This document shows positions 5,701 through 21,945 of a stretch of DNA of 21,945 nucleotides, piece after piece (position 1 is the first letter of the stretch; every line of letters starts with the position of its first letter). The notes beneath the pieces are model-generated. The model did no database searches and was not told where the DNA came from. It saw nothing but the letters and a program-made list of their open reading frames with translations. Position numbers and translations under genes: made by a program. The DNA is taken from assembly GCA_039208735.1 (NCBI GenBank), contig JBCCQY010000160.1:1-21945 (forward strand), in the 5' to 3' direction. This DNA is from Myxococcota bacterium (GTDB lineage Bacteria; Myxococcota_A; UBA796; GCA-2862545).

Positions 5701-6083
5701 GAGCCAAGGAGGGCCCCCAGGGCTTGGCGATGCTGCGCCAGATCGGCGCGTTCGAACGGGGGCAACCGGGCGAGTTCCGCCGACGCGCCAATGGGGTCTC
5801 CCACGGCGAGCCGGGCATGCGCCATCCACAAGCCCAATTCGGTGCGTTCCTCTCCTTCCGCCTCTTCGATCGCTTGGGCCAGCGTTTCTCGTGGGTCGTC
5901 ACCTGCACAAAGGGCCGCGATGGCGGCTTGCACCTCGAGGCGCCGGATCAACCAGGGATCCGCCGAGCGCAGCACCGCCGCACGAGCCGCGTCGATCATC
6001 TGTCGCGCATCACGCTCTTCCCCTCGTTCGAGGGCCGCCTTCACCCACGCGAGCGCGCGCCGTCCTTGCTGGACCGCATCCAC
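2694..6083 (-). CDS. STAND-family ATPase transcriptional regulator (helical N-terminus, wHTH, NB-ARC-like ATPase, TPR repeats), ~1129 aa
   Basis: wHTH NTLHVAITRLRARL...GGYVL; FIGR; Walker A TGPGGVGKS; Walker B LVVLDNAEH; VTSR; DRLPLAIELVAAR; LQWSWDLL; C-terminal TPR-like helices. Start re-assigned to in-frame GTG at 6083 behind GGGGAGAG, because the 6887 start of the ORF track overlaps two real plus-strand genes. Confidence 0.85.
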   Translation of the reverse strand: MDAVQQGRRALAWVKAALERGEERDARQMIDAARAAVLRSADPWLIRRLEVQAAIAALCAGDDPRETLAQAIEEAEGEERTELGLWMAHARLAVGDPIGASAELARLPPFERADLAQHRQALGALLGSELPPAQMQTRLLEPLGLAAAVAHEGTSGAAHDATLRPWPMGHRRLAGVWIQHARRRVGIKVLRSGPSPAWVLHGPHRVLRRDGQPCTDFGRSQLLFRLLSTIAATPDLAPEALYERVWGLKWLDTSANTLHVAITRLRARLAEGGPQLERGPHGGYVLAGAHAMVAYHPSPKATGSGLQMPTERRFIGRYHLRRRLREALHAGVRLVTLTGPGGVGKSRLAVEVFREPDDRWPDGAHFVDLTRSEPVLNLVAQALGVNDPGGSEAFAKRVAMRGPTLVVLDNAEHVLASVQALVEVLLAAQPANALQFVVTSRWRLEVEEEHAIEVPPLDRVEAIDLFIDRAQTSRSNVDLEEPRDAMGTIVDAVDRLPLAIELVAARAALLTLPELVQHTTTVLQLRRRDPSPERHATMDAALQWSWDLLGQEERSVMAQVSVFRGGFTEDAAQAIVEVAQETWLGDVLDALVAYAWLQHVDDRYTFFQTILDFAARQRGDDAALIQRHAEYFVRRGKSLEAGDSQWVANQWRWAERANLLAIAERLHARPPEPSAAHAAMLLLSGRRAIPNTQDRLAMAHAIVDSGLGGEPACRARMALGQSMLELGEVDAGLSYMREAIEHASRLGHRELHGQNLSVLGYTLLLYKPPEDARPILQQAEDLLEGVTAPYSHALLKAFVAHEHKRCGRLEAAMEAYHQSLEQFRAVDARESEGLFATNASSVFYEAGRLDEAVALADRALLLFRQIGLRHHESVMMMKLAIYRNRQGYSDEAIRIARRGVAIREQTGDLAGLRSCRASLGSLLVSHARYSQARELLSTVIQDPQTPPDSRGLAHLSLAQMHLDEGNPESAFGEMDRAKGCFERVGHRAFRLHERQLRGVGQLLAGQEALGAATLEETLDEWVKGLDRALRDRGAVYLWSVRAWDGAYDEVAQRLERIERRSTEASQRWETAFLQMARCHLEAARAPRRADRMVKALEELEALGRSAKMVTLRIASQVFRALIERRCVAE

Positions 6084-6176
6084 CGTTCTCTCCCCGCACG
6101 GCCCATCTATCCGTAAGCGAATGGTAAGTGGACCGGCCCCGGCTCCCGCGCGATCCTGCGTCGCGGCGAGGGGAAT

Positions 6177-6608
6177 GTGAATCAGCGAGTTTGGATCACA
6201 CTTTTGGCGTTGGGCTGCACGGTTCCTTGCGACGAGGTCGCACCGCTCGACGTGCAGTTGTCCTCGAGTGACGCCGACGGCTCCCTCTTGACGGCCGACC
6301 CTCGGCCCGCGTTTGGCCCGCAGGGCGGCCAACACCTTTGGCTTGCGGTCACCGTAGGCCGACTCGGCCCCGCTCCGCGCGCCCTCCGGGTGGCGCTTGA
6401 GGCCGTGGACGACACCGAGACCGTCGGCGGGTTCGAGCGCGACATCGACGATCCGCGACAGCCGGGCAGCCGTGGATCGACCGTCCTTGGCCCGCTGAGG
6501 CTCATCGTTGCCTCCTGGACACCAAACGCGCCGCGACGGGTGTGGGCCCAGGTCGACGACGACTGTGGCGCCTCGGGCACCGTTTCCTGGTCCTTCGACC
6601 AACCCTAG
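6177..6608 (+). CDS. Putative lipoprotein of unknown function
   Basis: GTG start after GAGGGGA. Signal peptide with lipobox LLALGC, a GPQGGQHLW motif and a second Cys near the C-terminus. Divergent from the STAND gene. Confidence 0.65.
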   Translation: MNQRVWITLLALGCTVPCDEVAPLDVQLSSSDADGSLLTADPRPAFGPQGGQHLWLAVTVGRLGPAPRALRVALEAVDDTETVGGFERDIDDPRQPGSRGSTVLGPLRLIVASWTPNAPRRVWAQVDDDCGASGTVSWSFDQP

Positions 6609-6615
6609 GAGTCCC

Positions 6616-7284
6616 ATGCTCTTCGCCATGTGGTTTGCGTTTGGATGTGCCGACGAGGCCTTCCTTCCCGAATACGGCCTGTTCCTCGCCGACGGAGAGT
6701 ACGACCCACTCGACGCGAGTGTTGTGCCCCCCACGTTCGATGCCTTCTTCACGGACCGCCTGGGTTGGTCGACCGATGACATCGACGCCGTCCGCAGTGA
6801 CGCAAAAGCCCACATGGCCAAGCGATACGGCATCGACGTGGACGGGCTCGTGGCGGAGGGCCGGATGCAGTGGCTCGAGCTGCACATCGATCCTCGTGCG
6901 AACTATCGAGCCTACGCCCTTCCGGGCTACGCCATCGGACCCGAAGGATGGACGATCCATGAGATCACGCTTTCAGCGATCGCCATCGATCCGAAGGGCA
7001 TCGAACTCGGCGGGCCTTACGCAGGCGCCCGCTTCGGTCCCGGCCCGGTTGGGGCCTACGGCTACTACCAGGTCGAGCCCGACGACAACGACCTCGACCC
7101 TCTGGTGATTCAGTACCAGACCAACGGGTTGATGGGAACCTCCTTCGATGGCCGCAACCTACTGTTTTGCGAGATGACCAGCGACGCCCTCGGTACGGGG
7201 CTTGGGCATGTGACATCCGAGATCCGGCAGCTCGACAACGGCCGTTTGAGCTACGATTTCACGAACGCTCAGCGCTGGGACTGA
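6616..7284 (+). CDS. Putative lipoprotein of unknown function, 222 aa
   Basis: ATG at 6616 preceded by AGGAG (6607-6611), 7 nt after the upstream stop. N-terminus MLFAMWFAFGC (lipobox-like). Acidic globular sequence with GC3-rich codons. Confidence 0.7.
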   Translation: MLFAMWFAFGCADEAFLPEYGLFLADGEYDPLDASVVPPTFDAFFTDRLGWSTDDIDAVRSDAKAHMAKRYGIDVDGLVAEGRMQWLELHIDPRANYRAYALPGYAIGPEGWTIHEITLSAIAIDPKGIELGGPYAGARFGPGPVGAYGYYQVEPDDNDLDPLVIQYQTNGLMGTSFDGRNLLFCEMTSDALGTGLGHVTSEIRQLDNGRLSYDFTNAQRWD

Positions 7285-7371: not shown

Positions 7372-8730
7372 GTGCTGTTACTCGCCCTCACTACGGCGCT
7401 CGCCGAGGATCCGTTTGCCACCGAGGCGCAGGTTCACGTCCTCGACAATGGCCTGACGGTGTTGCTGCATGCCGATGACCGAACCGACACCATTGCCCTT
7501 CACCTCACCTATGGCGTAGGCTCAAGGGACGAGCGGCCCGGGGAATTTGGCTGCGCCCACCTTTTCGAACACCTGATGTTCGAGGGCTCCGCCAATGTGC
7601 CGCGCGACATGTTCGATACGTGGCTCACGGCCGGTGGCGGCGAGAACAACGCGTGGACGTCCAACGACGAAACCACCTACCACATGACATTTCCATCGAA
7701 TGCACTGGATCTAGCGCTCTTCCTAGAATCGGATCGTATGGGATTCCTCAACGCGGGGCTCACCGAAGAAAACCTGACCAACCAGCAGAAGGTCGTCCTT
7801 CAGGAGCGAGCCGAATACTACAGTTCCCCCAACGGCCGCGACGACGATGCACTGGGCCGGCTGCTGTATCCGGTGGGCCACGGGTACCACTCGCCCATCA
7901 TCGGTACGGTCGCCGACATCAAGGCCCTAAAGGTTCAGCGCATCGCCGACTTCTGGATGCGCCACTACCGACCTCGCAACGCGGTGTTGGCGCTGGTGGG
8001 CAACCTCGATGAAGGCGAAGCGTTGGCGAAGGTCCGACAGTGGTTCGGTGACGTGCCCGACCGTGGTGCACCCGAGCCTCGGGCCGAGCCAGACCTCGTC
8101 AACGGAGGTGGGGTTCCCGAGCTTCAGACGCCGATTCAACGGGGCAAGCTTGTCAGCAAAGTCGAAGAGCGGACGCTGTATCTCGCTTGGTCCACGGTGC
8201 CCCACGGGCACCCCGACGAGCCTGCGCTCGACCTGCTTTCGTGGATCTTGGATGGCGGTCAGGGAACCCGGCTTGCCGACCGTCTTTACTGGAAGAGCAA
8301 GCTGACCAACGACATGTTGGTCACCACGAACAATGGCGACCTTAGCGGTCAGTTCATGATCTCAGCGACGTCGCCGCGCACGAAGCCCGTCAAGCTCGAA
8401 GCCGTGTCCCTTAAGGTGCTTCGGCAGATGATGGCCATGCCTCCCACGCCCGAGGAACTGAATCGAGCACGCCAACAGCAACGGTCCGCCGTGCTCGACA
8501 GCTTAGAAGCCTTCGACTCGCGGGCCGAGGCGATGGTCGATTGCTACCGATCCACCGGACAACCGAACTGCCTGGCGGCCGACTGGGCTCGCTACGAGGC
8601 GGTGACCTCCGACGACGTGGTTCGCGTGATTGGAACCTGGCTCGATCCCAACCGCATGCACGTCCTCGCCGTGGTGCCGACCGACGACAACTCTCTCGCC
8701 GCCGACCTTCCGACCGTGGAGCTGCCATGA
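7372..8730 (+). CDS. M16 (pitrilysin/insulinase) zinc peptidase, catalytic subunit, exported
   Basis: LDNGLTV, VGSRDE, inverted zinc motif HLFEH, NAWTSNDETTY, LESDRMG and downstream VVLQER (third ligand Glu). RBS AGGAGG. Short signal peptide ending ALA. Confidence 0.93.
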   Translation: MLLLALTTALAEDPFATEAQVHVLDNGLTVLLHADDRTDTIALHLTYGVGSRDERPGEFGCAHLFEHLMFEGSANVPRDMFDTWLTAGGGENNAWTSNDETTYHMTFPSNALDLALFLESDRMGFLNAGLTEENLTNQQKVVLQERAEYYSSPNGRDDDALGRLLYPVGHGYHSPIIGTVADIKALKVQRIADFWMRHYRPRNAVLALVGNLDEGEALAKVRQWFGDVPDRGAPEPRAEPDLVNGGGVPELQTPIQRGKLVSKVEERTLYLAWSTVPHGHPDEPALDLLSWILDGGQGTRLADRLYWKSKLTNDMLVTTNNGDLSGQFMISATSPRTKPVKLEAVSLKVLRQMMAMPPTPEELNRARQQQRSAVLDSLEAFDSRAEAMVDCYRSTGQPNCLAADWARYEAVTSDDVVRVIGTWLDPNRMHVLAVVPTDDNSLAADLPTVELP

Positions 8731-10148
8731 TCTTCGCGCTCTGCGCCCTCGCCGGCGCGACCGAGCTACCCGAGCTGAACGCACCCGATCGGTCCGCGCC
8801 GCCCGCGGTCGACCCGCCCGCGCTGCTCGAGTTGGATGAAGCACAGCAGATGACGTTGTCCAATGGCGTTCACGTCGAGTTTGTGCGGGTGCCCGGGGTA
8901 CGGCGCGTCGAGGTCGACGTGCGCATCGAACGGGGTCAAACCGCGCTGCCGGACATCCCAATGGCCCAATGGCAGATGCTTAATGCAGCCCTTGGCGATG
9001 CGACGCGCAACCGTTCTCCCGAGGCCGTCTCGATCTACACCGACCTCTACGACATCGACCTGAACTACTCGGTGAGCGTCCGACGAGGCCGCGCGGACAT
9101 TTCGGTGCCCCGTGAGAACCTGGCGCAGGCGGTAGAACTCCTGGCCGAGACCATCGCCGAGCCAGCGTTTCTTCGCAAGGAACTTCGCCGATCGGCGCGA
9201 AACACCCTGCAATGGGTGGTCGGGCAAGCCCAGCATCGCTTCAGCACGACCGCCAACTACGCCATGGTCTACCACTGGTACCGTGACCATCCCTTTGGTC
9301 GTCGACCGGACTACGCAGGTGCGTTGCGCGTCAAGCCGTCCCAGCTCACCAAGTTGTACGAACGATGGCGGGACGGAGCGCCTGCCATTGTCTCGGTGGC
9401 CGGCGATGTGTCGTGGAGCGACGTCGAGCCCCTGCTCGAGGCTCACCTCGTACCCCTCACACGGCCCGGCCACCGGGCGCCTCCAGTGCCCGAAGTGGTG
9501 CCTCCGGCAGCGTCCGTGTTGGGCATCGACATGCCGGGGAGCTCACAGGCCATGATCCAGCTCCTGGCCGAGGGCCCCCGCCGCGACTCGCCCGAATTCG
9601 CAACTGCGAACGCTGCGAATTTCGCATTGGGGGGTCACTTTCTGTCGAGGCTGAATGCCAACCTTCGTGAAGACAAGGGGCTGACCTACGGGGCGCGATC
9701 GAACCTGTACGCGTTCCTCAACCTGTCGCGGTGGACCTTGTCGGTCGAAGTGCGGGGCAAGGATGTCGGGGCGGCGCTCACCGAAGTCCGGCATGAGCTG
9801 GCTCGGCTCCTCGATGAAGGCATCACCCCGGCCGAACTCGACGCGGCGTGGCGGGCCGAAGCCGTCGCCTGGAATACGGTTCGCGCCAACGCTTCCAGCG
9901 CCTCGAATCAGTACACCACCATGGCCGAGCACGGCGACACGGCGGCGGACGTACGAACCCGAATCGAGCAACTCGCCAACCTCGACCTAAGCACGGTTGG
10001 CCCGACCGTTCGCACCTACCTCGACGCCAGCGCGCCCCACCTTTGGGTCTTCGTCGGCGACCGCGCTACGCTCGAGCCGCAACTCGCGGAGTTCGGACTC
10101 GAACCTCGGTGGATCACCGCCGCTCAAGCGGTGAACGGCCGGTTCTGA
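8727..10148 (+). CDS. M16 peptidase non-catalytic partner subunit
   Basis: ATG 8727 overlaps the upstream stop (ATGA). LSNGV present and HxxEH absent. Carries the R/Y motif SRLNANLREDKGLTYGA typical of the second M16B subunit. Confidence 0.88.
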   Translation: MIFALCALAGATELPELNAPDRSAPPAVDPPALLELDEAQQMTLSNGVHVEFVRVPGVRRVEVDVRIERGQTALPDIPMAQWQMLNAALGDATRNRSPEAVSIYTDLYDIDLNYSVSVRRGRADISVPRENLAQAVELLAETIAEPAFLRKELRRSARNTLQWVVGQAQHRFSTTANYAMVYHWYRDHPFGRRPDYAGALRVKPSQLTKLYERWRDGAPAIVSVAGDVSWSDVEPLLEAHLVPLTRPGHRAPPVPEVVPPAASVLGIDMPGSSQAMIQLLAEGPRRDSPEFATANAANFALGGHFLSRLNANLREDKGLTYGARSNLYAFLNLSRWTLSVEVRGKDVGAALTEVRHELARLLDEGITPAELDAAWRAEAVAWNTVRANASSASNQYTTMAEHGDTAADVRTRIEQLANLDLSTVGPTVRTYLDASAPHLWVFVGDRATLEPQLAEFGLEPRWITAAQAVNGRF

Positions 10149-10231: not shown

Positions 10232-11407
10232 TCACTCCCAACGGCGGGAATCCACCAGTGGCGATGCTCCATCGGCAATCGTGCCCGGCGGCACCACCTC
10301 CACCTCGATCTTGATCTTCACCGAACTCGGGGCCGCCGCGGCAAGGTCGGACGCCACCGTTCCCGTCCCATCCGGCGCCTCGACCCTAACGACAAGCCGA
10401 TCCTTGTGGTCCTCTCTCGTGATTGTACCCTGCCATCGCGTCACCGAGGGAAAGCGTCTCACCAACGCCGCGAGTTGGCGAGGATGCACGAACATGCCGC
10501 GCACCTTGACCGCGGCGTCCGCACGTCCCTGCCACCCCATGAGACGTGGCGAGATGCGCCCACACGTGCACGGTGCCATCTCGAGGCTCGAGAGATCCCC
10601 CACGCCAAACCGCACCAGCGCATAGTGAGGAGACATCGAGGTCACCACGACCTCGCCGACCTCGCCGGGAGGCAGAGGAGCCCCTGTGGTGAGGTCGCAA
10701 ATCTCGATCCAGACGTCGTCGGGCACATGCCAACCCGCCAACGCGTCACACTCGAAGCCCAAGTTGCCCGTCTCCGCGGTACCGTAGCCCTGACGAACGG
10801 TCACCCCTCGGTCCTGCAACGCCGACCGCAACGATGGTGGAAGCGGTTCCGCGGTCACGAACGCACGCTCGAACGCCAGCGTCAACCCAAGCGCATCCGC
10901 CTTGTCGAAGAGCGCCTTTAGGTAGGATGGCAGCCCGACGTAGCCCGTCACGCCCAACTGGTGGAGCAACCGGACTTGCTGCTCTTGGTTGCCCACCCCG
11001 CCCGGCACGACCACGCAGCCGACTGCACGCAAGCCCTCATGGAACATGATGCCAGCCGGCGACAGGTGGTACCCAAACGCGTTGAGAACCCGTTCGCCCG
11101 GCGAGAAGCCCGCCGTGCGCAGAGCCGAGGCCCATCGCCACGCATCGGGCACTGCAGGTTCTGGCGTGTAGATGGGCCCAGGAGACTGGTAGATGCCCTT
11201 CAGCTCCGACGGGTCGACCGCCAGGAGCCCTCCGAAGGGAGGGTTTTCCCCTTGCAACGACACAAGCTCGCTCTTGCGTTGAACGGGTAACGCCGCCAGA
11301 TCATCGAGCGTCCGGATCTGACTTGCTTCCAGCCCGGCGGCCTTGAGGCGTTGCGCGAACGCAGGCGCACGAGCCACGAAGTGTTCGATCAGCGCAGGCA
11401 GGTCCAT
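10232..11407 (-). CDS. Phenylacetate-CoA ligase (PaaK-like) family AMP-binding protein
   Basis: IYQSPGPIY, NAFGYHLSPAG, VTAEPLPPSLR, QGYGTAETG, VRFGVGDLS, GRADAAVKVRGMFVHP. ATG 11407 has GGAGGA upstream. Alternative GTG start at 11428 overlaps the upstream stop. Confidence 0.88.
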   Translation of the reverse strand: MDLPALIEHFVARAPAFAQRLKAAGLEASQIRTLDDLAALPVQRKSELVSLQGENPPFGGLLAVDPSELKGIYQSPGPIYTPEPAVPDAWRWASALRTAGFSPGERVLNAFGYHLSPAGIMFHEGLRAVGCVVVPGGVGNQEQQVRLLHQLGVTGYVGLPSYLKALFDKADALGLTLAFERAFVTAEPLPPSLRSALQDRGVTVRQGYGTAETGNLGFECDALAGWHVPDDVWIEICDLTTGAPLPPGEVGEVVVTSMSPHYALVRFGVGDLSSLEMAPCTCGRISPRLMGWQGRADAAVKVRGMFVHPRQLAALVRRFPSVTRWQGTITREDHKDRLVVRVEAPDGTGTVASDLAAAAPSSVKIKIEVEVVPPGTIADGASPLVDSRRWE

Positions 11408-11424
11408 GGGTCCTCCAGACGCCG

Positions 11425-12216
11425 TCACGAAAGCCAGCGTTTGCGGCGGCGGTAGTGCTTCACATCACGATACGACTTGCGGTCCCCACGCTGCGACATG
11501 CCCAGGTAGAACTCCTGGACGTCCGCGTTGCCCTCGAGTTCGGCTGGCGTTCCTTCCAACACGATCCGGCCGCCCTCCATGATGTAGGCGTGGTCCGCGA
11601 TGTCCAATGCGCGCCGGGCGTTCTGTTCGACGAGGAGAATGGTGGTGCCTCGCTCCTCTCTGATGCGGCGTACGATCTCGAAAATTTCGGCCACGAGCAA
11701 CGGCGCGAGCCCGAGTGACGGCTCATCGAGCAACATGAGGGCCGGTTTGGCCATGAGCGCACGCCCGATCGCCAACATCTGCTGTTCTCCGCCCGAGAGG
11801 TACCCGGCGATCTGACGACGCCGCTCTTTCAGGCGCGGAAACCAATCGTAGATGCCGTCGAGATCGGTCGCACCAATACGGTCGCGACGGGTGTGCCCGC
11901 CGGCCAGCAGGTTCTCTTCGACGGTGAGATGCTCGAAGACCCGTCGACCCTCCATCACCTGGAAGATGCCCTGACGAACGATGTGTTCGGGCCGGGCGTG
12001 CTGGATGGGCTCGCCGCGCCAGGTGATGGTGCCATCGCTCACGGCTCCGCGCTCTGGGCCCAGCAACCCCGAGATCGCCTTGAGGGTGGTCGTCTTGCCA
12101 GCTCCATTCGAACCGAGCAACGCGACCACCTTGCCCTCTGGCACCTCCATGGACATGCCCTTGAGCACCAGGATCACCTGGTCGTAGCGAACCTCGACGT
12201 TGGCCAGGCTCAGCAT
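11425..12216 (-). CDS. livF: Liv-type (HAAT) ABC transporter ATP-binding protein, LivF-like
   Basis: Walker A GSNGAGKTT, signature LSGGEQQ, Walker B LLDEPSLGLAP, LVEQN. Start re-assigned to ATG 12216 (MLSLANVEV), 1 nt after the upstream stop. Confidence 0.93.
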   Translation of the reverse strand: MLSLANVEVRYDQVILVLKGMSMEVPEGKVVALLGSNGAGKTTTLKAISGLLGPERGAVSDGTITWRGEPIQHARPEHIVRQGIFQVMEGRRVFEHLTVEENLLAGGHTRRDRIGATDLDGIYDWFPRLKERRRQIAGYLSGGEQQMLAIGRALMAKPALMLLDEPSLGLAPLLVAEIFEIVRRIREERGTTILLVEQNARRALDIADHAYIMEGGRIVLEGTPAELEGNADVQEFYLGMSQRGDRKSYRDVKHYRRRKRWLS

Positions 12217-12217
12217 G

Positions 12218-13474
12218 TCAGGGAGTCTCTGGAACAGGTTCGGCCGGCACCGCATCCGCGGGAGGGGCCACCGGATCCTGGGCCGAGGTGAACCCATCGC
12301 CAATGGCCACCCACTTGCCATCCACCACCTTGTGTAGGCGAAGAGCGGTGTTTCCGCGGTGGCTTTCAGGAGTAAAGGTGATGGGTGCGGTGATGCCGCC
12401 GGTCTCGAAGTCCTTCAGGGTTTCGAGCGACGCCTTGATTTTGGCACCGTCGAGGTTGCCCTCGGGGTCTTGGCGAAGCGCTCGGGCCGCTCCTTCGAGC
12501 ATGACCGCCGCCGACCACCAACCTTGGGTGTAGTGCAGCCCTTTCTCGGCGAGCGAGCTTCCTTTGGACGCGAGGTAAGCGCCGGGGGCCTTCGACCCTT
12601 CAAGCCCCTCCGCCGGAATCGCGAACGGAATGGCGCCGACCACACCCTCCGCCGCCTCACCGGCAAGCTGAAGCAGGATCTCGTCCGCCACCCACACCAG
12701 GCCGACAAACGTAAGATCGAGGCCCTGCGTCTTGGCATCTTTGATCAGCACCGCCGCAGGCCCTGCCGTGTTGTGGATCACGACGTGGGTGGCTCCGGCG
12801 GCTTGCACCCGCGCCAATTCGGCCACAAAGTCCGTGGCGCCCCGCGGCATCGTAATCGCGGTGAGTTCTACCCCGTTAGCCTCGGCAAACGCCCGGGCAT
12901 CGGCCAACGGAGACTCCCCAAACGGACTGTCGTGATGGAGCAGCGCCACCTTCGCAGACCCTTCGCCCCCCTTCGCCCGATGGTCCTCAAGCGCATAACG
13001 AACGCCGATGATCGCCTGATCCGAGTAGGTGGTCCCAACGAGGAAATTGTAGGGCGCTTCATCGATCTTCGCGAGCTGGGCCGAGTAGGAGGCCGACATG
13101 AACGGCACCTGGTCCGACGCGATGCGACCGCGCAATGCCTCGGTGTCACCCGTGCCCCAGCCAAAGAACAGCACCGCGCCCTGCGAAACGTAGCGGGTGT
13201 AGAGCTGCTCGGCGCGGTCCACCTTGTAGGCGTAGTCGGCCGAGAGCAGCTTGAGCGGGCGGCCTTCGATGCCTCCTTGGTCGTTGGTCCACGCGACATA
13301 GTCCTTCATGCCTTCGGCATAGGTCGCGCCCACATCCGAGGTGGCCCCCGTCAAGTCGAAGATTGCACCAATAATGATGGGCTCGGGGCCCGCATCTGCG
13401 GCGGGCTCGGAGCTCCCACAGGCCGTGAGGACCGTCAGCGCGAGCAGCCCTAGGGCGTGAAACCAGTTCAACAT
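12218..13474 (-). CDS. Liv-type ABC transporter substrate-binding lipoprotein (periplasmic binding protein type 1)
   Basis: Lipobox VLTAC; IGAIFDLTGATS; NDQGGIEGRPLKL; GWGTGDT. ATG at 13474 with GAGAGG upstream. Confidence 0.92.
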   Translation of the reverse strand: MLNWFHALGLLALTVLTACGSSEPAADAGPEPIIIGAIFDLTGATSDVGATYAEGMKDYVAWTNDQGGIEGRPLKLLSADYAYKVDRAEQLYTRYVSQGAVLFFGWGTGDTEALRGRIASDQVPFMSASYSAQLAKIDEAPYNFLVGTTYSDQAIIGVRYALEDHRAKGGEGSAKVALLHHDSPFGESPLADARAFAEANGVELTAITMPRGATDFVAELARVQAAGATHVVIHNTAGPAAVLIKDAKTQGLDLTFVGLVWVADEILLQLAGEAAEGVVGAIPFAIPAEGLEGSKAPGAYLASKGSSLAEKGLHYTQGWWSAAVMLEGAARALRQDPEGNLDGAKIKASLETLKDFETGGITAPITFTPESHRGNTALRLHKVVDGKWVAIGDGFTSAQDPVAPPADAVPAEPVPETP

Positions 13475-13484
13475 CAACGTCCTC

Positions 13485-14534
13485 TCACTTCTCGTAGTCG
13501 AAGGGCCAAAGCCAGAAATAGTCCTTCACGTTCTTCCAGATCTCGCTGAGGCCTCGCGGCTCGAAGATGAGGAAAAACATGATAGTCAAGCCGAATACGG
13601 CCTGTTGTACGTACGGAATCGTGGCATCGATCGATGGAATCGTCTCGGACAGAGCGTAGCCAACCTCGGTGATGAGGGCCGGCAGCACGGTGAGCAACAC
13701 AGCCCCCAGGAACGACCCCGTCACGGACCCCAACCCACCGATGATGATCATGGACAGGTAGAGGATCGAGACCTCGATGGTGAAGCGCTCCCACGTGACG
13801 ATGCCGCGATAGTGCGCGGTCAACGCACCGGCGACGCCAACGATGCCCGACGACAGCGCAAAGGCGATGAGCTTCGTCGAAAAGACGTTCACCCCCATGG
13901 CGCTCGCCGCGATGTCCTGGTCGCGGATGGCCACGAAGGCGCGGCCGTAATGCGTACGAAGCAGGTTGAGGTTCGCGAGCGCCGCCAGCGCAGCACACCC
14001 TGCACCCAACCAGTAGAAGTTGAAGTCATCGCGGAAGGACACACCAAACAGCATGGGATCCGGCACTACGATGGCCTCCTTGCCGCCGGTCAGTGCGTCC
14101 CAGTGGGTGACCACCCACAGGATGATTTCCTGGGCCGCAAGTGTAGCAATCGCCAGATACAATCCCTTTAGTCGCAGAGATGGGATCCCGAACAGGAGCC
14201 CCACGACCGCGGCGGCCCCGGCTCCTGCCAACGTCGACAGGGTCCAGTGGACGTCCAGGTTCACCGTGAGCAGGGCTGCAGTGTAGGCCCCCACGGCCAT
14301 GAACCCACCCTGACCCAGCGAGATCTGACCGGTGTAGCCCACAAGGATGTTGAGTCCGATCGCACCCACCGTGGCAATCGCGATTTGGTTCGCGATGGTG
14401 AGTGCATAGCGGTCGGCGAAGAATGGAAACGCCACCACCGCACCCACGAACAGGGCCAGCCGAATCCACTCTGCCCGGGTCTTCCGAAGCGCCATGTCGG
14501 CGCGGTAATTGGTTTGGTAGATCCCGGATTCCAT
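13485..14534 (-). CDS. livM: Liv-type ABC transporter permease, LivM-like
   Basis: GLNILVGYTGQISLGQGGFMAVGAY, LRLKGLYLAIATLA, GRAFVAIRD, IIGGLGS; multiple TM segments. Confidence 0.93.
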   Translation of the reverse strand: MESGIYQTNYRADMALRKTRAEWIRLALFVGAVVAFPFFADRYALTIANQIAIATVGAIGLNILVGYTGQISLGQGGFMAVGAYTAALLTVNLDVHWTLSTLAGAGAAAVVGLLFGIPSLRLKGLYLAIATLAAQEIILWVVTHWDALTGGKEAIVVPDPMLFGVSFRDDFNFYWLGAGCAALAALANLNLLRTHYGRAFVAIRDQDIAASAMGVNVFSTKLIAFALSSGIVGVAGALTAHYRGIVTWERFTIEVSILYLSMIIIGGLGSVTGSFLGAVLLTVLPALITEVGYALSETIPSIDATIPYVQQAVFGLTIMFFLIFEPRGLSEIWKNVKDYFWLWPFDYEK

Positions 14535-15407
14535 CTAGACGCGCTCCACGCGTTGCTCGCCGAAGAGGCCGTAGGGCCGCACGAGCAGGATGCCGACAAG
14601 AATGATGTAGGGCAGCACCTGCTCGAGGCCATCGCCGATGTAGCCCCGCGTATACGCCTGCAAAAGCCCGATGATGAGCCCGCCCACGACCGCACCGGGA
14701 ATGGAGTCCAGCCCGCCCACGATGACCACGGGAAAGACGTAGAGCCCAAAGTGACCGAGTTCAGGTCCCACTCCCACGATGTTCGCCACGATGGCCCCGC
14801 CCAGGGCGGCCGACACCGCGCCAATCGCCCACGCCCAACCGAAGACCCGGTTCACGCTGATGCCCATGCTCATGGCGGCCTGCTGATCATCCGCCACCGC
14901 GCGCATCGCGATGCCTTGACGGGTAAGCCGGAAGAACAGCGTAAAGCCGGCCAGCAGCACCACCGCGACCACGATGGCCCAAAGCCGGTCGGTGCCTACG
15001 GTGGCCGGTCCGATCGAGACGGGCTCGCTGGGAATGAACGAGGGAAAGGCGCGCGGCTGAGTGCCCCAGATCATCCCCACGAACGCCCGAAGTACGCTCG
15101 ACAAACCAATGGTCACCATGATGAGAGAAATGATCGGTTCGCCGACCATTTGGCGGAGCACGAGGCGTTCGACAAGGGCTCCCATCACGACCGCGGCCAC
15201 GATCGTTAGCCCCATCCCCACCGGCCACGGAAGACCGAGCTGCACGATGGCCGCGTAGGCGAAGTAGGCCCCCAGCAACAGGAACTCGCCCTGGGCGAAG
15301 TTCAGCACGTCACTCGCCTTGTAGATCAGCACGAACCCCAAGGCTGCGAGTGCGAGAATCGCGCCGTTGGTCAGGCCCGTCACTGTAAGCTGCACAAAGA
15401 GGTCCAT
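14535..15407 (-). CDS. livH: Liv-type ABC transporter permease, LivH-like
   Basis: ALGFVLIYKASDVLNFAQGE, GIAMRAVADD, VIVGGLDSIPGA, RPYGLFG. Confidence 0.93.
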   Translation of the reverse strand: MDLFVQLTVTGLTNGAILALAALGFVLIYKASDVLNFAQGEFLLLGAYFAYAAIVQLGLPWPVGMGLTIVAAVVMGALVERLVLRQMVGEPIISLIMVTIGLSSVLRAFVGMIWGTQPRAFPSFIPSEPVSIGPATVGTDRLWAIVVAVVLLAGFTLFFRLTRQGIAMRAVADDQQAAMSMGISVNRVFGWAWAIGAVSAALGGAIVANIVGVGPELGHFGLYVFPVVIVGGLDSIPGAVVGGLIIGLLQAYTRGYIGDGLEQVLPYIILVGILLVRPYGLFGEQRVERV

Positions 15408-17302
15408 CAGGGTTTCACCGGCGCTACGGTCTGGATGGTGAGGCTCGTTTCAATCACCGCGCTGGACCCGTCCTGGTAGTGGATGGTGCTGCGGACCTGC
15501 ACCGCATCGCCGTCGCCATACAATCCATCCACGATGTCGCGGTAGCGCTCGGCCACCAGGTTTCGGCGCACTTTGCGGGTCCTCGTCAGCTCGGCATCGT
15601 CGGCGTCGAGTTCTTTGTGCAAGAGCACGAAACGCCGTACTCGCGCGGCCTGTGGCATCTCCGCATTGCGACCCGCCACGTGCGCAAGCACCAACGCGTA
15701 GACCTCGGCCTTCTGTGCCAAGTCGGTGTAGGTCGTGTAGCCAATACGCTGGTTTTCAGACCATTTCCCAACGTTTGCGAAGTCGATGTTGAGCATGGCC
15801 GTCACGAAGGGCCAGTCCCCACCGCCAAACACCACGGCCTCTTTGACGTACGGGCTGAACTTCAGTTTGTTTTCGATGAACTGGGGACTGAAGAGCGTTC
15901 CGTCGGCCAGGGTCATCACGTCTTTGGCGCGGTCGAGCACCACGAGCTGGCCGCGGTCATCGAAGTAGCCAGCGTCGCCAGTCCGAAGCCAGCCGTCCGT
16001 CAACACCTCGGCCGTCGCCGCATCATTTCGGTAGTACCCCTGCATCACCGCGGGGCTTCGCACCAAAATCTGCCCATCGTCATCGAGACGAACTTCGGTT
16101 CCGGGTAGCGGTTCGCCCACCGTGTCGAAATCGATGGCCCCATCCCGATGAAGCACGGCGATACCCGACGTCTCCGTCTGGCCGTAGATCTGTTTCAGGT
16201 TCACCCCGAGCGCGTGGAAGAACCGGAAGACATCGGGCCCCAGAGCCGCCCCGCCTGTGTATGCGCGCACGAGCTGGGTGAGTCCGAGATGCTCCTTGAT
16301 GGGGCGCAGCACCGTGGCGTGGGCCAGGGCGTACGCAACCCGGAGGAACGGACCGGGGGTGCGTCCCGCAAACCGTGCATCCGCCATGCGATGACCGATC
16401 GCGAGCCCCCGACGATAGGCCCATCGCTTCAGGGGGGTGGTGTCTTCGATGCGGGATTGCACCTCGCTGACCAACGCTTCCCAAATTCGGGGTGGGTTGA
16501 ACATGACGCGAGGGGCGATTTCGCGAAGGTCACGGCGCGTGGTGGCGGTTCCCTCCGCGAAGCTCAAGGGAAACCCGACCGACAGCCCACACGCCACCGC
16601 CATCATCTGCTCCCCGATCCAGGCCAGAGGCAGCACGGACACGAAATCATCGCGGGGCTTAAGCGGATCCACGTCCATGAGCGTACGGCCCATCACCAGC
16701 AGATTTTCGTGGGTGAGCATGGCGAGTTTCGGGGTGCCCGTTGTGCCTGAAGTCGACGAGAGAATGGCCAAATCGCCGGGCTTCGTGCGCCGCACCCGTT
16801 CGGCAAACGCCTCCCGTCGACCCGCCCCCTCTGCCTGCACCTCGGTAAAGCGCATCAGCCAGGGCTCGTCGTAGCCTTCGAGGCCCCGAGGATCGTAGTA
16901 GACGACCTTGCGCACCTTGTCGCCCAGGCCGAGTTCGCGCACCTTGTCGACCTGTTCCTGGTCTTCGACGACGATGAACGAGACCTCGGCATGTTCAACG
17001 ATGTAGGCCAATTCCTGGCCAACCGCGTCCTGATAGACCCCGACCGACCGAGCCCCCGCCGCCTGGGCCGCAAGTTCGCTAATCAGCCATTCGGGCCGAT
17101 TGTCGCCGATGATGGCAAGCGTCTCTCCAGGCTGGAGGCCCAGCTCGACCAGCCCTTCGCAAAAGTCGGCCACCTGATCCGCGTACTCTCGCCAGCTCAG
17201 CGTCTTCCAGATGCCGTGGTGCCGTTCGCGGAGCGCGGGACGATGGGGCGTGCGCTCCGCGTGTCCCATGAGCAATCCCGGAAGGGTCTGTGGCCACGTC
17301 AT
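15407..17302 (-). CDS. Long-chain fatty acid-CoA ligase (AMP-binding, FadD-like)
   Basis: STSGTTGTPK, YGQTE, GWLRTGDAG, DRAKD, ELTRTRKVRR. Translationally coupled on both sides. Confidence 0.92.
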   Translation of the reverse strand: MTWPQTLPGLLMGHAERTPHRPALRERHHGIWKTLSWREYADQVADFCEGLVELGLQPGETLAIIGDNRPEWLISELAAQAAGARSVGVYQDAVGQELAYIVEHAEVSFIVVEDQEQVDKVRELGLGDKVRKVVYYDPRGLEGYDEPWLMRFTEVQAEGAGRREAFAERVRRTKPGDLAILSSTSGTTGTPKLAMLTHENLLVMGRTLMDVDPLKPRDDFVSVLPLAWIGEQMMAVACGLSVGFPLSFAEGTATTRRDLREIAPRVMFNPPRIWEALVSEVQSRIEDTTPLKRWAYRRGLAIGHRMADARFAGRTPGPFLRVAYALAHATVLRPIKEHLGLTQLVRAYTGGAALGPDVFRFFHALGVNLKQIYGQTETSGIAVLHRDGAIDFDTVGEPLPGTEVRLDDDGQILVRSPAVMQGYYRNDAATAEVLTDGWLRTGDAGYFDDRGQLVVLDRAKDVMTLADGTLFSPQFIENKLKFSPYVKEAVVFGGGDWPFVTAMLNIDFANVGKWSENQRIGYTTYTDLAQKAEVYALVLAHVAGRNAEMPQAARVRRFVLLHKELDADDAELTRTRKVRRNLVAERYRDIVDGLYGDGDAVQVRSTIHYQDGSSAVIETSLTIQTVAPVKP

Positions 17303-18132
17303 GCCGCCCCCTCCTCGCCCAGGTAAGCTTCGAGAACCCGGGGATCTCGGCTGACTTCATCTGGCCGGCCATCTGCGATCTTCGTCCCAAAGTCCAGCAC
17401 GGCAATGCGGTCGCTAATGTCCATGACCACGCCCATGTCGTGCTCAATGAGCAAGGTCGTGACGCCGTGGTGCTCGGCGACGTCGAGCACGAACCGCGCC
17501 ATGTCTTCCTTTTCTTCTGCGTTCATCCCGGCCATTGGCTCATCAAGCAACAACATCGCGGGACGCAAAGCAAGGGCCCGACCAAGTTCCACACGCTTTT
17601 GCAGTCCGTAGGCCAGCGAGCCGACCGGTCGGGTGCGGATCGCCCCGATTTCCAGCAGCTCAATGATGTCCTCGACGAACTCACGAAACCGGATTTGCTC
17701 GGCTTGGGCGGGTCCCCAGAACACTAGGCTCATGGGAAGGCTCGATCGCATGTGGACGTGACAGCCGGCGAGGAGGTTGTCGAGCACGGTCATGTGCTTG
17801 AACAGCTCGATGTTCTGAAATGACCGCGCCACGCCGAGCCGCGCGATGCGATGGGGTGGCAGCTTCGACGTCGTGTGGGACCGACCCTCGTTGTGAAACG
17901 TGATGACGCCCGTTTGCGCGCGGTACAGCCCGCTGATGCAATTGAGGAGGCTCGTCTTGCCCGCGCCATTTGGCCCGATGATGGCGACGACCTCCCCCTG
18001 GTGAACGTCGAAGTCGATCCCACGCAGGGCGTGAACGCCCCCAAAACGCAGGTCGAGGCCGCGGACAGAAAGTTGGAGTTCCCCCGGTTCAAGGGTGCTT
18101 CGGTTCAGGCGATGCGTGAAACCGCGCTGCAT
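17299..18132 (-). CDS. livG: Liv-type ABC transporter ATP-binding protein, LivG-like
   Basis: FGGVHAL, GPNGAGKTS, ARSFQNIELF, LAYGLQKRVELGRAL, LLLDEPMAGMN, IEHDM, EAYLG. Confidence 0.93.
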   Translation of the reverse strand: MQRGFTHRLNRSTLEPGELQLSVRGLDLRFGGVHALRGIDFDVHQGEVVAIIGPNGAGKTSLLNCISGLYRAQTGVITFHNEGRSHTTSKLPPHRIARLGVARSFQNIELFKHMTVLDNLLAGCHVHMRSSLPMSLVFWGPAQAEQIRFREFVEDIIELLEIGAIRTRPVGSLAYGLQKRVELGRALALRPAMLLLDEPMAGMNAEEKEDMARFVLDVAEHHGVTTLLIEHDMGVVMDISDRIAVLDFGTKIADGRPDEVSRDPRVLEAYLGEEGAA

Positions 18133-19356: not shown

Positions 19357-20094
19357 CTAACGGCGACGCCGGCCGAGAATCAGACCCCCGAGTGCGCCGA
19401 AGAGCCACCCCCAACTGAGCCTCGGAGTCGGCCCCTGCGCGCACCCCTCAGAGGTGAGCGGGGGCTTAGGATCTCCCGTCGCGTCGAGCGGCGGGAAACC
19501 CGCGGAGGCCACAGGGCCGCCCGCCCGCTCGGCGGGTTCGAGCGTTCCTGAGTCATCCTCGTCGAGGAAGAGCGACGAGGTCGTGCGAATCGACTCGGCA
19601 AGCGTCTGTCCCTCCGGGGTGGTCGGATCGAACGTAAACTCCCCGAACTCGATGCCGAGGTCGAGCCATTCGGGTTCACCAAGCTCGATGATGTAGCTCT
19701 CACCATCAACCTCGAAGGGTGCGGCTCCCCAGAGTTCGGCTGGCCCCTCGGGTTGGAGTTGAAGCCCGAACTCGATCGGCGCCGGCGTCGAAGCAAATCC
19801 CGTGAACCCTTGAGGGAACGCCAGTTCGACGCCACACCATTCGCCTCCCGGCGCGGTGAGGGTGGCCCGGCCAAGGGCATCGATCGCTTCGCCTTCGACG
19901 ACCACCTCACGCCCACCCACACAGTCGATCCAGGTCACGTCGGCCGCCTCCAGCCGGGCGAACTCGAACGTGAACTTGGCCGTGGGCGCGGTCTGGACGA
20001 CCGACTTGCCAGGATTACCCACGAAAATGCCTTCGGGCGGGGGCCGATCGCAAGCCCCAAGCCCCAAGACCAGGAAAAATGGCAGACGGTTCAT
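19357..20094 (-). CDS. Lipoprotein with GNP motif, EF-hand-like loop and MYXO-CTERM-like C-terminal tail
   Basis: Lipobox LGLGAC, then GIFVGNPG. EF-hand-like loop DEDDSGTLEPAE. C-terminus SEGCAQG...WGWLFGALGGLILGRRRR. Start overlaps the upstream stop (TGATG). Confidence 0.8.
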   Translation of the reverse strand: MNRLPFFLVLGLGACDRPPPEGIFVGNPGKSVVQTAPTAKFTFEFARLEAADVTWIDCVGGREVVVEGEAIDALGRATLTAPGGEWCGVELAFPQGFTGFASTPAPIEFGLQLQPEGPAELWGAAPFEVDGESYIIELGEPEWLDLGIEFGEFTFDPTTPEGQTLAESIRTTSSLFLDEDDSGTLEPAERAGGPVASAGFPPLDATGDPKPPLTSEGCAQGPTPRLSWGWLFGALGGLILGRRRR

Positions 20095-20966
20095 CAGTTC
20101 GACTCGGGGGCATCAGACAGAGGAAAGAGGCAGACACTCAGTTGGTACACGCGGCCGTCAGCACTCGCTTCGCGATCACACAGATTCAGGACCCGCTCAT
20201 GAAGTGCGAACACCTCTTGCCGCACTTGTTCTAAGAGGTGCTCAGGAACCGCAAGGGTGGAGCCACAAAGTAGCCGCTCCTCGGGATCGAAGCGCTCCAC
20301 CGCTTCCCGCGCCCGGGCCAGCATGCCGTAGTGGTAATTGTGGACGGCTAACCCCGCGACCTCAGGAGCCGTCACCACCGTCGCATCCGTGACACGAATG
20401 CGCCCATCCGGGTCGCGGGCCAACAGCTCGAACTCGAACAGGACATCCAATGCCCGTTGGGCCTCGGCTGGCGTGATGGTGGGCCGGAGTCGCGCGGCCA
20501 ACCAATCCGCATCGGCGATGAAATCTGCGCGATGCGCCAACTCACGAATCGCAGGGTAGTACCAATGCGTCAGGCACTCGAAAGCCGCGCCCTCCACGCG
20601 ACGGGCCCCCAGTGCGCGCTGAGTGGTACTGATTCGCTCCCAAGCCTCATTGCGTTCAAGGTCGCTCGTGGCCTGACCGAGCTTTACCAACCAGCCAAAG
20701 AACTCGGCTTCGGTGTCCGAAAGCTTCAGCGCCCGCGCAAACGCCTCTTGGTTCGCGGGCGTCAGGTTCCGTTCCCCGCGCATCACATGAAGCAAGGCCG
20801 AAGGAGACTTCTGCCCGGCCCGCCGAGCAAAGCCGCGGTGACTGAATCGAGGATTCGACGCCTTCTTCGCGTTGAACCAGTCAACAAGGAACGCGCGGAA
20901 GTCAACGTATTGGAAAATGTTTGGAAGAGAAGGGGAGCTTCGCACGTAGGTCTCAGCAGCGAGCAC
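20094..20966 (-). CDS. TIGR02147 family protein (N-terminal Cro/HTH-like domain plus DUF4423-like domain)
   Basis: PNIFQYVDFRAFLVDWFNAKKASNPRFSHRGFARRAGQKSPSALLHVMRGERNLT, WYYPAIRELA and C-terminal VYQLSVCLFPLS match the family pattern. Start could alternatively be GTG 20945. Confidence 0.88.
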   Translation of the reverse strand: MLAAETYVRSSPSLPNIFQYVDFRAFLVDWFNAKKASNPRFSHRGFARRAGQKSPSALLHVMRGERNLTPANQEAFARALKLSDTEAEFFGWLVKLGQATSDLERNEAWERISTTQRALGARRVEGAAFECLTHWYYPAIRELAHRADFIADADWLAARLRPTITPAEAQRALDVLFEFELLARDPDGRIRVTDATVVTAPEVAGLAVHNYHYGMLARAREAVERFDPEERLLCGSTLAVPEHLLEQVRQEVFALHERVLNLCDREASADGRVYQLSVCLFPLSDAPESN

Positions 20967-21026
20967 TGCGCGCTACTATGAACCGGGATGTTTGGGGGCA
21001 ACCCTCATCCGAAAAAGGAATCGCCT

Positions 21027-21467
21027 ATGCCACCCCTCCGATACGCCCGCCGCCAATGGGGCACCATCCTCTACGTCATCGTAGGACTGTTGATGACCCC
21101 TTTGGTGATCTTCCAAGTTCTTGAGGGCAATTGGGCGGTCGCGAGCGTCATCTTGGCGACGGTTGGACTGACGCTTCTGCTCTTCGGCAGCTTGCTGGTC
21201 ACGGTCGACGCCGAACAGGTTCGCCTGTCGTTTGGGGTAGGGGTGATTCAGCGCCGCATTCCGCTGTCGCAGGTCCTCGATTCCAAGCCGGTCCAGAATC
21301 GAATGTGGTGGGGGTACGGCATCCGCCTCACGCCCCACGGCTGGATGTGGAACATCGCAGGGCTCCAGGCCGTCGAACTCACCCTTGCGTCCGGTCGTCA
21401 CTTTCGCATCGGCACGGGCGAGCCCGAGGCCCTCAACAACGCCATCGCTTCCGCAAAAGCGGGATGA
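21027..21467 (+). CDS. Small membrane protein (2 TM plus soluble PH-like domain), function unknown
   Basis: ATG 21027 behind AAGGA. Two hydrophobic helices, then WWGYGIRLTPHGWMWNIAGLQAVELTL...FRIGTGEPEAL. Confidence 0.8.
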   Translation: MPPLRYARRQWGTILYVIVGLLMTPLVIFQVLEGNWAVASVILATVGLTLLLFGSLLVTVDAEQVRLSFGVGVIQRRIPLSQVLDSKPVQNRMWWGYGIRLTPHGWMWNIAGLQAVELTLASGRHFRIGTGEPEALNNAIASAKAG

Positions 21468-21494
21468 CGGACAACGTCGTGAAGCATTGAAGGA

Positions 21495-21566
21495 TTGGGG
21501 GACTCGGGTTCGAACCGAGGTCTTCCGGGTCAAAGCCGGACATCCATTCCACTGGACCATCCCCCC
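21495..21566 (-). tRNA. tRNA-Gln (anticodon UUG), no encoded CCA, atypical acceptor end
   Basis: The minus strand folds as GGGGGGA-TG-GTCC-AGTGGAAT-GGAT-G-TCCGG-CT[TTG]AC-CCGGA-AGAC-CTCGG-TTCGAAC-CCGAG-TCCCCCA-A. Perfect anticodon and T stems, GG in the D-loop, TTCGA T-loop. Anticodon at 21531-21533. Confidence 0.93.
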
Positions 21567-21567
21567 A

Positions 21568-21607
21568 GAAACGGAAAAAGCCCCTCATGCCAATGGCGCG
21601 AGGGGCT
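21568..21607 (-). terminator. Intrinsic terminator (attenuator 3:4 hairpin) immediately upstream of tRNA-Gln
   Basis: Minus strand AGCCCCUC-GCGCCAUUGGCAU-GAGGGGCU followed by UUUUCCGUUUCU. 8-bp perfect stem (21600-21607 with 21579-21586), extendable by GCC/GGC. Confidence 0.85.
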
Positions 21608-21629
21608 CTTTCAACGATGCTTGTTGGAC

Positions 21630-21710
21630 CTAGTCGCACCCCTCCCGCGACCGACCCGAGGGTTGGCGTTGAAGTTGGTGCCAGCAAATCCAATTGAGCA
21701 TGGGGTTCAT
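21630..21710 (-). CDS. Putative leader (attenuator) peptide MNPMLNWICWHQLQRQPSGRSREGCD
   Basis: ATG 21710 (GAGGTG 10 nt upstream) or in-frame ATG 21701, to TAG at 21630. Three Gln codons, all CAA (21675-77, 21669-71, 21663-65). The stop is 22 nt before the terminator stem. Confidence 0.7.
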   Translation of the reverse strand: MNPMLNWICWHQLQRQPSGRSREGCD

Positions 21711-21735
21711 CTAGCGGGCACACCTCATTCGTCAA
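21708..21735 (-). promoter_or_regulatory. Candidate sigma70-type promoter for the leader-tRNA unit
   Basis: TTGACG (21735-21730), 16 nt spacer, TAGATG (21713-21708). Good -35, imperfect -10. Confidence 0.4.
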
Positions 21736-21804
21736 GCCACCGTCGCATCAAGTGACGCTCGTCTTCGCATTGGCCCGAGCACACGTTTTCGCGGCCTCTG
21801 AAAG

Positions 21805-21945
21805 GAAGGCGTTCGACGAACCCGTGCTGACGGGGATCTCCATGGCCGATAGCGATGGCGCAACAGCACGGAGATCGGCATGGCGAATCGAAGTCGCGAG
21901 GAGTGGCGGGAGCTTGTCTGGCAGTGGGAGCACTCGGGACAGACC
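21805..21945 (+). mobile_element. Probable left end of an IS66-family element (start of tnpA accessory gene at 21880, running off the window)
   Basis: ATG 21880 behind GGAG reads MANRSREEWRELVWQWEHSGQT..., like the N-terminus of IS66 TnpA (W-x-x-L-V-x-x-W-x-x-SG-x-S/T). GAAGGCGTTCGACGAACCCG at 21805 loosely resembles IS66 GTAAGCG-type terminal repeats. Only 22 codons are visible. Confidence 0.55.

Follow-up and report, generated by a model that had tools for sequence, protein, structure and literature searches.

A candidate ribosome-coupled attenuator ahead of a spare tRNA-Gln(UUG) gene in a Myxococcota contig

The classical leader-peptide attenuators include the enterobacterial leaders trpL, hisL, pheL and leuL, the multivalent leaders of thrL and ilvGMEDA, and pheM-pheST, and the control of tRNA genes is usually ascribed to promoter strength, growth rate and the stringent response. 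The stretch of Myxococcota DNA analysed here (the window, 21,945 nt of contig JBCCQY010000160.1) raises the question whether a tRNA gene may itself be the cargo of such an attenuator, controlled by the very codon that it decodes. A sequence-only reading had proposed this for a tRNA-Gln(UUG) gene behind a CAA-rich leader ORF and a terminator. In our analysis, the locus is best explained by a transcription attenuator that is coupled to the ribosome, controls a spare tRNA-Gln(UUG) and is designed mainly to sense the decoding of CAA; we assign this reading a probability of roughly 60%. Its established parts are the layout of the locus, the switch as computed and the agreement between leader codons and cargo at related loci, whereas we infer the translation of the leader, the regulated read-through and the start site.

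The tRNA gene was called by ARAGORN as tRNA-Gln(UUG) at 21495-21567, in agreement with Rfam (RF00005, 53.4 bits), and we annotate it as a supernumerary, array-type tRNA on the minus strand (21495..21566) with the anticodon at 21533-21531. It is the sole tRNA in the 21.9-kb window, and the next gene is a convergent, small membrane-protein-like ORF on the plus strand (20988..21467, from the ORF listing), which bounds the unit and lies outside the switch; the tRNA is thus indeed the only cargo, as had been proposed. The convergent ORF matches no Pfam or NCBIfam family, and it has homologs in two of five genomes (G002 and G003), where the surrounding 1.5 kb contain no tRNA. Because a canonical housekeeping tRNA-Gln(UUG) is encoded on contig C40 of the source genome (G000), the window tRNA is an extra copy. 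All of its stems are intact. At the acceptor end, G1 and A72 form a non-canonical pair (alternatively, U21567 is followed by one extra G), position 73 is A and no CCA is encoded; A73 also occurs in the housekeeping tRNA-Gln(CUG) of the same genome. A close strain carries A instead of T at the base preceding the G run, so this base is not a conserved U1, and a metagenome contig that is more distant lacks one of the Gs, so that its first pair would be a canonical U1-A72. GlnRS prefers a weak 1-72 pair, and contig C65 of the source genome ends in a gene fragment for a GlnRS-YqeY fusion, which scores below the cut-off since it is truncated there. Because of the non-canonical first base pair, the charging and use of this tRNA as a backup can only be inferred. 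The closest sequences in relatives are array tRNAs of the genomes G002, G013 and G076. A D-loop/anticodon pattern gave 11 matches in genome contigs, consisting of five tRNAs, all in clusters of 3-19 tRNAs, and six non-tRNA sequences, and 0 matches in viral contigs.

The candidate promoter that had been noticed upstream is present on the minus strand as a −35 hexamer TTGACG (21730..21735) and a −10 hexamer TAGATG (21708..21713) with a 16-nt spacer, their function being predicted from the sequence. A strict consensus scan of 20500-21945 for sigma-70 promoters and terminators returned 0 promoters and 0 terminators, because the −10 box lacks T6 and the hairpin contains internal loops. Since the tRNA promoters of the source genome have a relaxed −10 box, we do not read this blank as absence; the relaxed form (TTGACN, 16-18 nt, TA....) lies upstream of 12 of its 56 ARAGORN tRNA calls. 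The −10 box is followed after 6 nt by an AUG at 21701, and the leader of another genome (G176) has a comparable spacing (−35/17/−10/7 nt/AUG). Because the promoter puts the transcription start near 21701, the leader probably begins as a leaderless AUG at this position and would encode 23 codons plus TAG (21630..21701, minus strand, with TAG at 21632-21630; ORF listing). The previously proposed ORF of 26 codons (21630..21710, minus strand) exists in the same frame with its CAC CAA CTT CAA CGC CAA run and would apply if the AUG at 21710 were used; this start has a GAGGUG about 10 nt upstream, but lies inside the −10 box and appears less likely than 21701.

Segments 1 to 4 read on the minus strand as had been described, and all three of the mutually exclusive helices could be computed. 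Segment 1 (21658..21668) is the core of a longer anti-antiterminator 5' arm (21701-21658) and pairs with segment 2 (21635..21649, including the 21644-21635 given earlier), which consists of the last leader codons and may alternatively pair with segment 3 (21597..21606), the terminator 5' arm; the 3' arm is segment 4 (21580..21587). The folding energies of the 1:2 helix are −12.3 kcal/mol for the core and −36.5 kcal/mol for the long form, and that of the 2:3 helix is −21.6 kcal/mol. Taken as a duplex, segments 2 and 3 reach −18.3 kcal/mol, a value equalled in 12 of 500 shuffles, and the 141-nt leader region as a whole folds at −68.8 kcal/mol (z −5.77), with none of 200 shuffles as stable. The 3:4 helix forms an intrinsic terminator hairpin (21574..21612, minus strand) of −28.2 kcal/mol with a U5 tract at 21579-21575, and its stem ends 12 nt before T21567, as expected for the U-tailed terminator claimed to precede the tRNA. 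A CAAC/GUUG mini-hairpin suggested to shorten the antiterminator loop is seen in the ribosome-at-stop state, but is absent from the antiterminator of lowest energy, in which the inner helix is GCGA/UCGU. With a short ORF, exclusive helices and a U-tract terminator all present, the layout has the geometry of trp/his/pheST-like attenuators.

The behaviour of these helices was modelled on a nascent transcript extending to 21596, a point at which segment 4 is not yet available, with a ribosome footprint of 12 nt. In this model, the RNA acts as a three-state switch. The antiterminator has a probability of 0.04 when no ribosome is present. This value is 0.84-1.00 for an A site anywhere in codons 1-15 and falls to 0.10 or less once codon 16 is reached, and the permissive edge shifts by one codon if the footprint is set to 9 or 15 nt. 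The proposed outcomes of a stall on CAA (antiterminator) and of a ribosome at the stop codon (termination) are thus reproduced, but the permissive window covers all of codons 1-15 and is not specific for CAA. In the full-length transcript at equilibrium, the terminator has a probability of 0.93 or more at every ribosome position; therefore, the switch must be kinetic. Known attenuators are likewise under kinetic control. The attenuator interpretation is supported by these calculations on the nascent RNA.

According to the preferred reading, RNA polymerase would start near 21701 and the leaderless AUG would be loaded with a ribosome. With rapid decoding, this ribosome would move past codon 16 and cover segment 2, so that segments 3 and 4 could pair and transcription would stop 12 nt before the tRNA. 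Without a ribosome, the long 1:2 helix would hold segment 2, again leading to termination. A ribosome waiting within codons 1-15, most likely at one of the three CAA codons, would instead cover the 5' arm, allowing segment 2 to capture the emerging segment 3 and the tRNA to be transcribed. As the resulting tRNA reads the sensed codon, the system would constitute a negative feedback loop on usable Gln-tRNA(UUG).

Whether CAA is the intended input may be judged first from the leader itself. The three CAA are leader codons 9, 11 and 13 (21663..21677, minus strand), inside the run CAC-CAA-CTT-CAA-CGC-CAA-CCC. CAA accounts for 1.23% of the codons in long ORFs of the source genome, giving P = 6e-4 for three or more within 14 codons, and this number is reached by 24 of its 31,120 short ATG ORFs. 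The residues of the permissive window are L N W I C W H Q L Q R Q P S (14 codons), three of which are read by the cargo tRNA, and CAA is the only codon occurring three times, matching the lone cargo. Because the permissive window also contains codons for Trp (two), Cys, His, Leu (two), Arg and Pro, for which no matching tRNA lies downstream, sensing would be Gln-weighted and not Gln-only. The modelled switch should respond likewise to a ribosome stalled on a codon for Trp, Cys, His, Leu, Arg, Pro, Ile or Asn, so that CAA would be its most repeated but not its sole input, and the width of the permissive window would allow a response to drug-induced stalls at whatever codon.

The hairpin might instead be an ordinary terminator or a damper of a constitutive promoter, with the ORF and its CAA codons present by chance. 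Some codon occurs at least three times in 18% of the short ORFs of the source genome, and terminator-then-tRNA layouts lacking a leader ORF are common among the matches listed in the search described below. A scan of the whole source genome for an ORF plus terminator also returned 20 rows, most of which are probably chance, so that the layout alone is weak evidence and the codon match carries the weight. We nevertheless consider a chance origin very improbable, because the cargo decodes precisely the codon that is repeated, the gap of 25 nt from leader stop to hairpin lies near the mode of about 29 nt (within a selection range of 20-45 nt), the complementarity of segment 2 recurs in six of seven class-level leaders, and the codon match of the wider family, as set out next, is frame-specific.

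The match between leader codons and downstream anticodons was assessed at sites with a GGGCTTTT-type tail just ahead of a tRNA, which were sought in metagenomes (67 loci), in viral contigs (among the matches listed, with complete flanks for at most 80 loci per search) and in class and phylum genomes. The 468 loci examined contained 317 unique tail-plus-tRNA sites among the matches listed, of which 21 were discarded because another tRNA immediately preceded them and 30 because no hairpin reached −10 kcal/mol. Among these matches, 181 of 266 hairpin-plus-tRNA sites lacked a leader ORF, defined as an ATG ORF of 15-60 codons whose end lies 20-45 nt upstream of the hairpin, and the 85 with a qualifying leader were grouped into 38 clusters including the window. 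The leader ORF was chosen by its gap alone, blind to its codons, and one representative was used per cluster; the largest cluster (38 members) has mixed first tRNAs. The evaluated codon window (−22 to −9) was derived from the fold model and fixed after the codon lists had been seen, so its choice was not fully blind. Search motifs and phages both bias this set of clusters, locus length truncates the cargo lists, and the clusters are not independent in a formal phylogenetic sense.

Among the matches listed, cargo-matched codons made up a fraction of 0.229 in the 37 non-window clusters versus 0.129 after permutation (reached in 0 of 20,000 permutations), and the match by amino acid was 0.261 versus 0.156. 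The same 37 clusters showed no excess in frame +1 (11,090 of 20,000 permutations), in frame +2 (2,570 of 20,000) or in the last eight leader codons (1,672 of 20,000), again among the matches listed. The expected correspondence of leader codons and anticodons is thus found, and only in the leader frame and in the upstream codons. It extends beyond glutamine, with values among the matches listed of 0.182 versus 0.085 for the 24 clusters with a non-Gln first tRNA (0 of 20,000) and of 0.170 versus 0.095 for the secondary cargo behind Gln in ten clusters (120 of 20,000). CAA itself accounted for 31 of 230 codons in clusters with Gln(UUG) cargo and for 12 of 244 in those without Gln cargo (Mann-Whitney p 0.008, among the matches listed). 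Two or more CAA were present in 10 of 18 Gln(UUG)-cargo clusters versus 3 of 19 without Gln cargo, the other 8 of the 18 having fewer than two CAA in the codon window, and 23 of the 38 clusters switched in the fold model versus 12.0 expected from shuffled leader ends (all among the matches listed). These data indicate that leaders before terminator-gated tRNA genes are enriched for the codons which those tRNAs read, and this codon-to-cargo match argues for a tRNA-specific design.

Individual loci illustrate the correspondence. A Q/K-rich leader stands ahead of Gln, Lys and Gln tRNAs (L069), a Q/R/L leader ahead of Gln, Leu, Gln, Arg and Arg tRNAs (L076), and an L/S/Y leader ahead of Leu, Leu, Ser, Ser and Tyr tRNAs (L166). 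In genome G176, which belongs to the same class as the source genome, a leader with an H/R/D core precedes Arg, Asp and His tRNAs (L031), and a single-Gln cargo behind a QQ-rich leader was found at L082. Many marine viral contigs (L124-L243) represent a large phage family with a C-W-P-P type leader core before Trp, Pro, Cys and Ser tRNAs, and such phage leaders have at least 38 members in one cluster. With its single-tRNA output, the window would be an instance of a broader design whose usual cargo is a small tRNA array. We slightly favour the generalization that bacteria and phages carry a modular cassette in which one or several spare tRNAs stand behind a leader written in their own codons and are re-supplied only when their own decoding fails, be it by starvation, loss of wobble modification or anticodon-nuclease attack, and that the window shows its minimal one-tRNA form on a bacterial contig.

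The mixed codons of the permissive window also fit a multivalent or general sensor of translation stress using the same switch. The cassette might be the remnant of a larger module with Trp, Cys, His, Gln, Leu, Arg and Pro tRNAs, of which only tRNA-Gln is left, or it might report early ribosome stalls of any cause, e.g., by antibiotics. A permissive window covering codons 1-15 would suit such a sensor, as would the combination of a W-I-C-W motif resembling leaders with Trp/Cys cargo and an H-Q-L-R-P motif resembling those with Gln/His/Leu/Arg/Pro cargo. Of the 20 amino acids, 18 are used in the leader of the C65 array and all 20 in that of the G002 array, and one similar leader gates only an HNH gene. 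L-array tRNAs of Anabaena are described as induced by translation impairment (PMC8421152). Erosion of a larger module is exemplified in the source genome itself, where two tandem leader-terminator units on contig C65 (L007:4257-4440 and 4615-4720) precede an array of Arg-ACG, His-GUG, a degenerate tRNA and Thr-GGU, followed by an HNH gene and a convergent glnS. This tRNA array is an eroded version of the larger G002 array; the first of its leaders has 42 codons and lacks only Cys and Gln. In the window leader, however, CAA alone is tripled, in accordance with the lone cargo, and the single Gln cargo recurs with the QQ-rich leader of L082. Furthermore, in two other lineages (loose ends, X2 and X6) the tRNA is followed by 30 nt that are not tRNA-like by eye, which suggests that the single-tRNA layout recurs. 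We regard a multivalent or general sensor as the chief rival, possible but unlikely.

Rfam recognized RF00005 as the only family in the cassette, with no leader family and no T-box at gathering score, and BLAST of the cassette against phages and plasmids gave no match. An exact ortholog of the leader was not found in 40 relatives, where three weak matches corresponded to two array tRNAs and one coding stretch. A terminator-plus-D-loop pattern matched only the source genome among 182 class genomes, and a strict terminator-plus-tRNA pattern matched three of 401 phylum genomes, one of them without a tRNA. A pattern of the leader end matched seven of 154 order genomes, which is not above the reversed control, and only one of these matches is leader-like; this locus (L497, contig C11 of G076) has a leader-terminator of the same style directly before an array-associated HNH gene with no real tRNA. 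Similar leader-terminator units precede tRNA arrays in G013, G076 and G176, and the class-level leaders with segment 2:3 complementarity achieve it with differing sequences (7-39 of 500 shuffles as strong); in the HNH-gene leader of G076, it was matched by 332 of 500 shuffles. In G176, a swap of A-U to C-G is carried through segments 2, 3 and 4.

The cassette might also be a decaying relic that was acquired horizontally with an array, its tRNA damaged (G1·A72) or unused and its switch not yet eroded. Apart from the non-canonical first pair and the lack of CCA, this explanation may draw on the degenerate tRNA of the C65 array and on the absence of the cassette from the four other genomes of the genus searched (80-95% complete). 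In addition, window positions 21805-21945 contain a stretch of 123-140 nt that recurs unchanged at the ends of three further contigs (C267, C104 and C163) and has about five-fold depth; they are therefore probably the end of a multi-copy mobile element, located 70 nt upstream of the −35 hexamer. The tRNA stems, promoter, ORF and all three helices are intact, however; moreover, GlnRS is encoded in the genome. The close strain, known from two mat-metagenome studies, differs at 21592 in the terminator loop, 21608 in the A-tract, 21624 in the linker, 21567 and 21573 in the spacer before the tRNA, 21727 in the promoter spacer and 21487 on the 3' side of the tRNA. None of the listed changes falls into the leader ORF or the segments, which is weak evidence of conservation because there are only about eight changes in 342 nt and one of the two contigs has a depth of 3.8. 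A further run (X1) was not counted here, as the window itself may stem from it, and no RNA run was listed as containing this DNA. On balance, a relic appears improbable to us.

The cassette shares with the classical attenuators a short ORF that contains cognate codons, three mutually exclusive helices (1:2, 2:3 and 3:4) and a terminator with a U tail, and the position of the ribosome would decide on read-through, here as computed on nascent RNA. It differs in that the cargo is the tRNA decoding the sensed codon instead of a biosynthetic or synthetase gene, and in its probably leaderless start, the lack of an Rfam leader match and its wide, mixed permissive window. In our judgement, it would be a classical attenuator whose cargo, a tRNA gene, is of a new kind. 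ABCF and whiB7 leaders are antibiotic-sensing uORFs, with which the cassette would have in common the relief of termination by a stall and a wide stall window; their stalls are drug-induced and their cargo is a protein, whereas the codon content of the tRNA leaders tracks the cargo anticodons across loci. A further uORF, that of toiL-topAI, relieves premature termination by a ribosome stall (PMC12121999). T-box elements need no ribosome, since their specifier loop and UGGN bulge bind uncharged tRNA directly (PMC4052509, PMC7778990 and PMC2494555). The cassette would resemble them in that the state of one tRNA species sets the choice of terminator or antiterminator, but the window has no T-box match in Rfam and a leader of about 120 nt containing an ORF. 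The L-array tRNAs of Anabaena are stress-induced and often linked to an HNH gene (PMC8421152), and the Anabaena operon is reported to be controlled by the repressor TrcR (PMC10272220). The window tRNA is likewise a supernumerary, array-type tRNA beside a housekeeping copy, and L-arrays are described as horizontally spread tRNA genes, with the HNH linkage also found at C65 of the source genome and in G002; however, the window contains one tRNA in 21.9 kb instead of many clustered ones, and control in Anabaena is exerted by a repressor. The cassette is neither a T-box nor itself an L-array. The main text of PMC8421152 contains no occurrence of attenuat-, leader or terminator, and the available texts of PMC4052509, PMC7778990, PMC2494555 and PMC12121999 contain no case of a tRNA attenuator. 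We found no description of a leader-peptide attenuator of a tRNA gene in the literature, where comparative surveys or supplementary tables could hold cases.

If the preferred reading is true, it would represent a direct, species-specific feedback on the tRNA pool and provide a reason why supernumerary tRNAs of genomes and phages are kept and yet usually silent, namely for the on-demand repair of one failing species. The sequence of a leader would then predict which stress induces which tRNA. The cassette is a possible natural biosensor for the decoding capacity of one tRNA and, because it comprises only about 240 nt with one cargo, an easy test model. The promoter, leader ORF, exclusive pairings, terminator and lone tRNA-Gln(UUG) named in the sequence-only reading are confirmed as present.

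Some arrays of related genomes show other arrangements. In G002 (L005:6550-6720), a 56-codon ORF using all 20 amino acids begins 27 nt past a TTGACG and precedes a 15-tRNA array; because no U-tailed terminator is evident there, the array may be under control of another type. In G076 (L020:1715-1650, minus strand), a second promoter is followed by an ORF of 22 codons, among them codons for Arg, Ile, Asp and Val. About 10 nt separate its end from tRNA-Arg, -Asp, -Ile and -Val, and no terminator lies in between. This is possibly a second type, in which the ribosome might affect tRNA folding, processing or Rho loading. In a Nannocystales MAG (L011), a Gln/His/Pro-rich ORF, identified by eye, ends at the start of a Pro-Gln-His tRNA trio, with no terminator. 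ARAGORN also called a tRNA-Ile with the anticodon UAU, unusual in bacteria, on contig C1 of the source genome (105568-105640). The remainder of the window contains a branched-chain amino-acid-type ABC transporter cluster with two interleaved AMP-binding enzymes on the minus strand (10232-18132), a TIGR02147 gene (20094-20966), an M16 peptidase pair (7372-10148) and a large TPR/NB-ARC-like regulator (2694-6887), all of which are ordinary genes unrelated to the switch.
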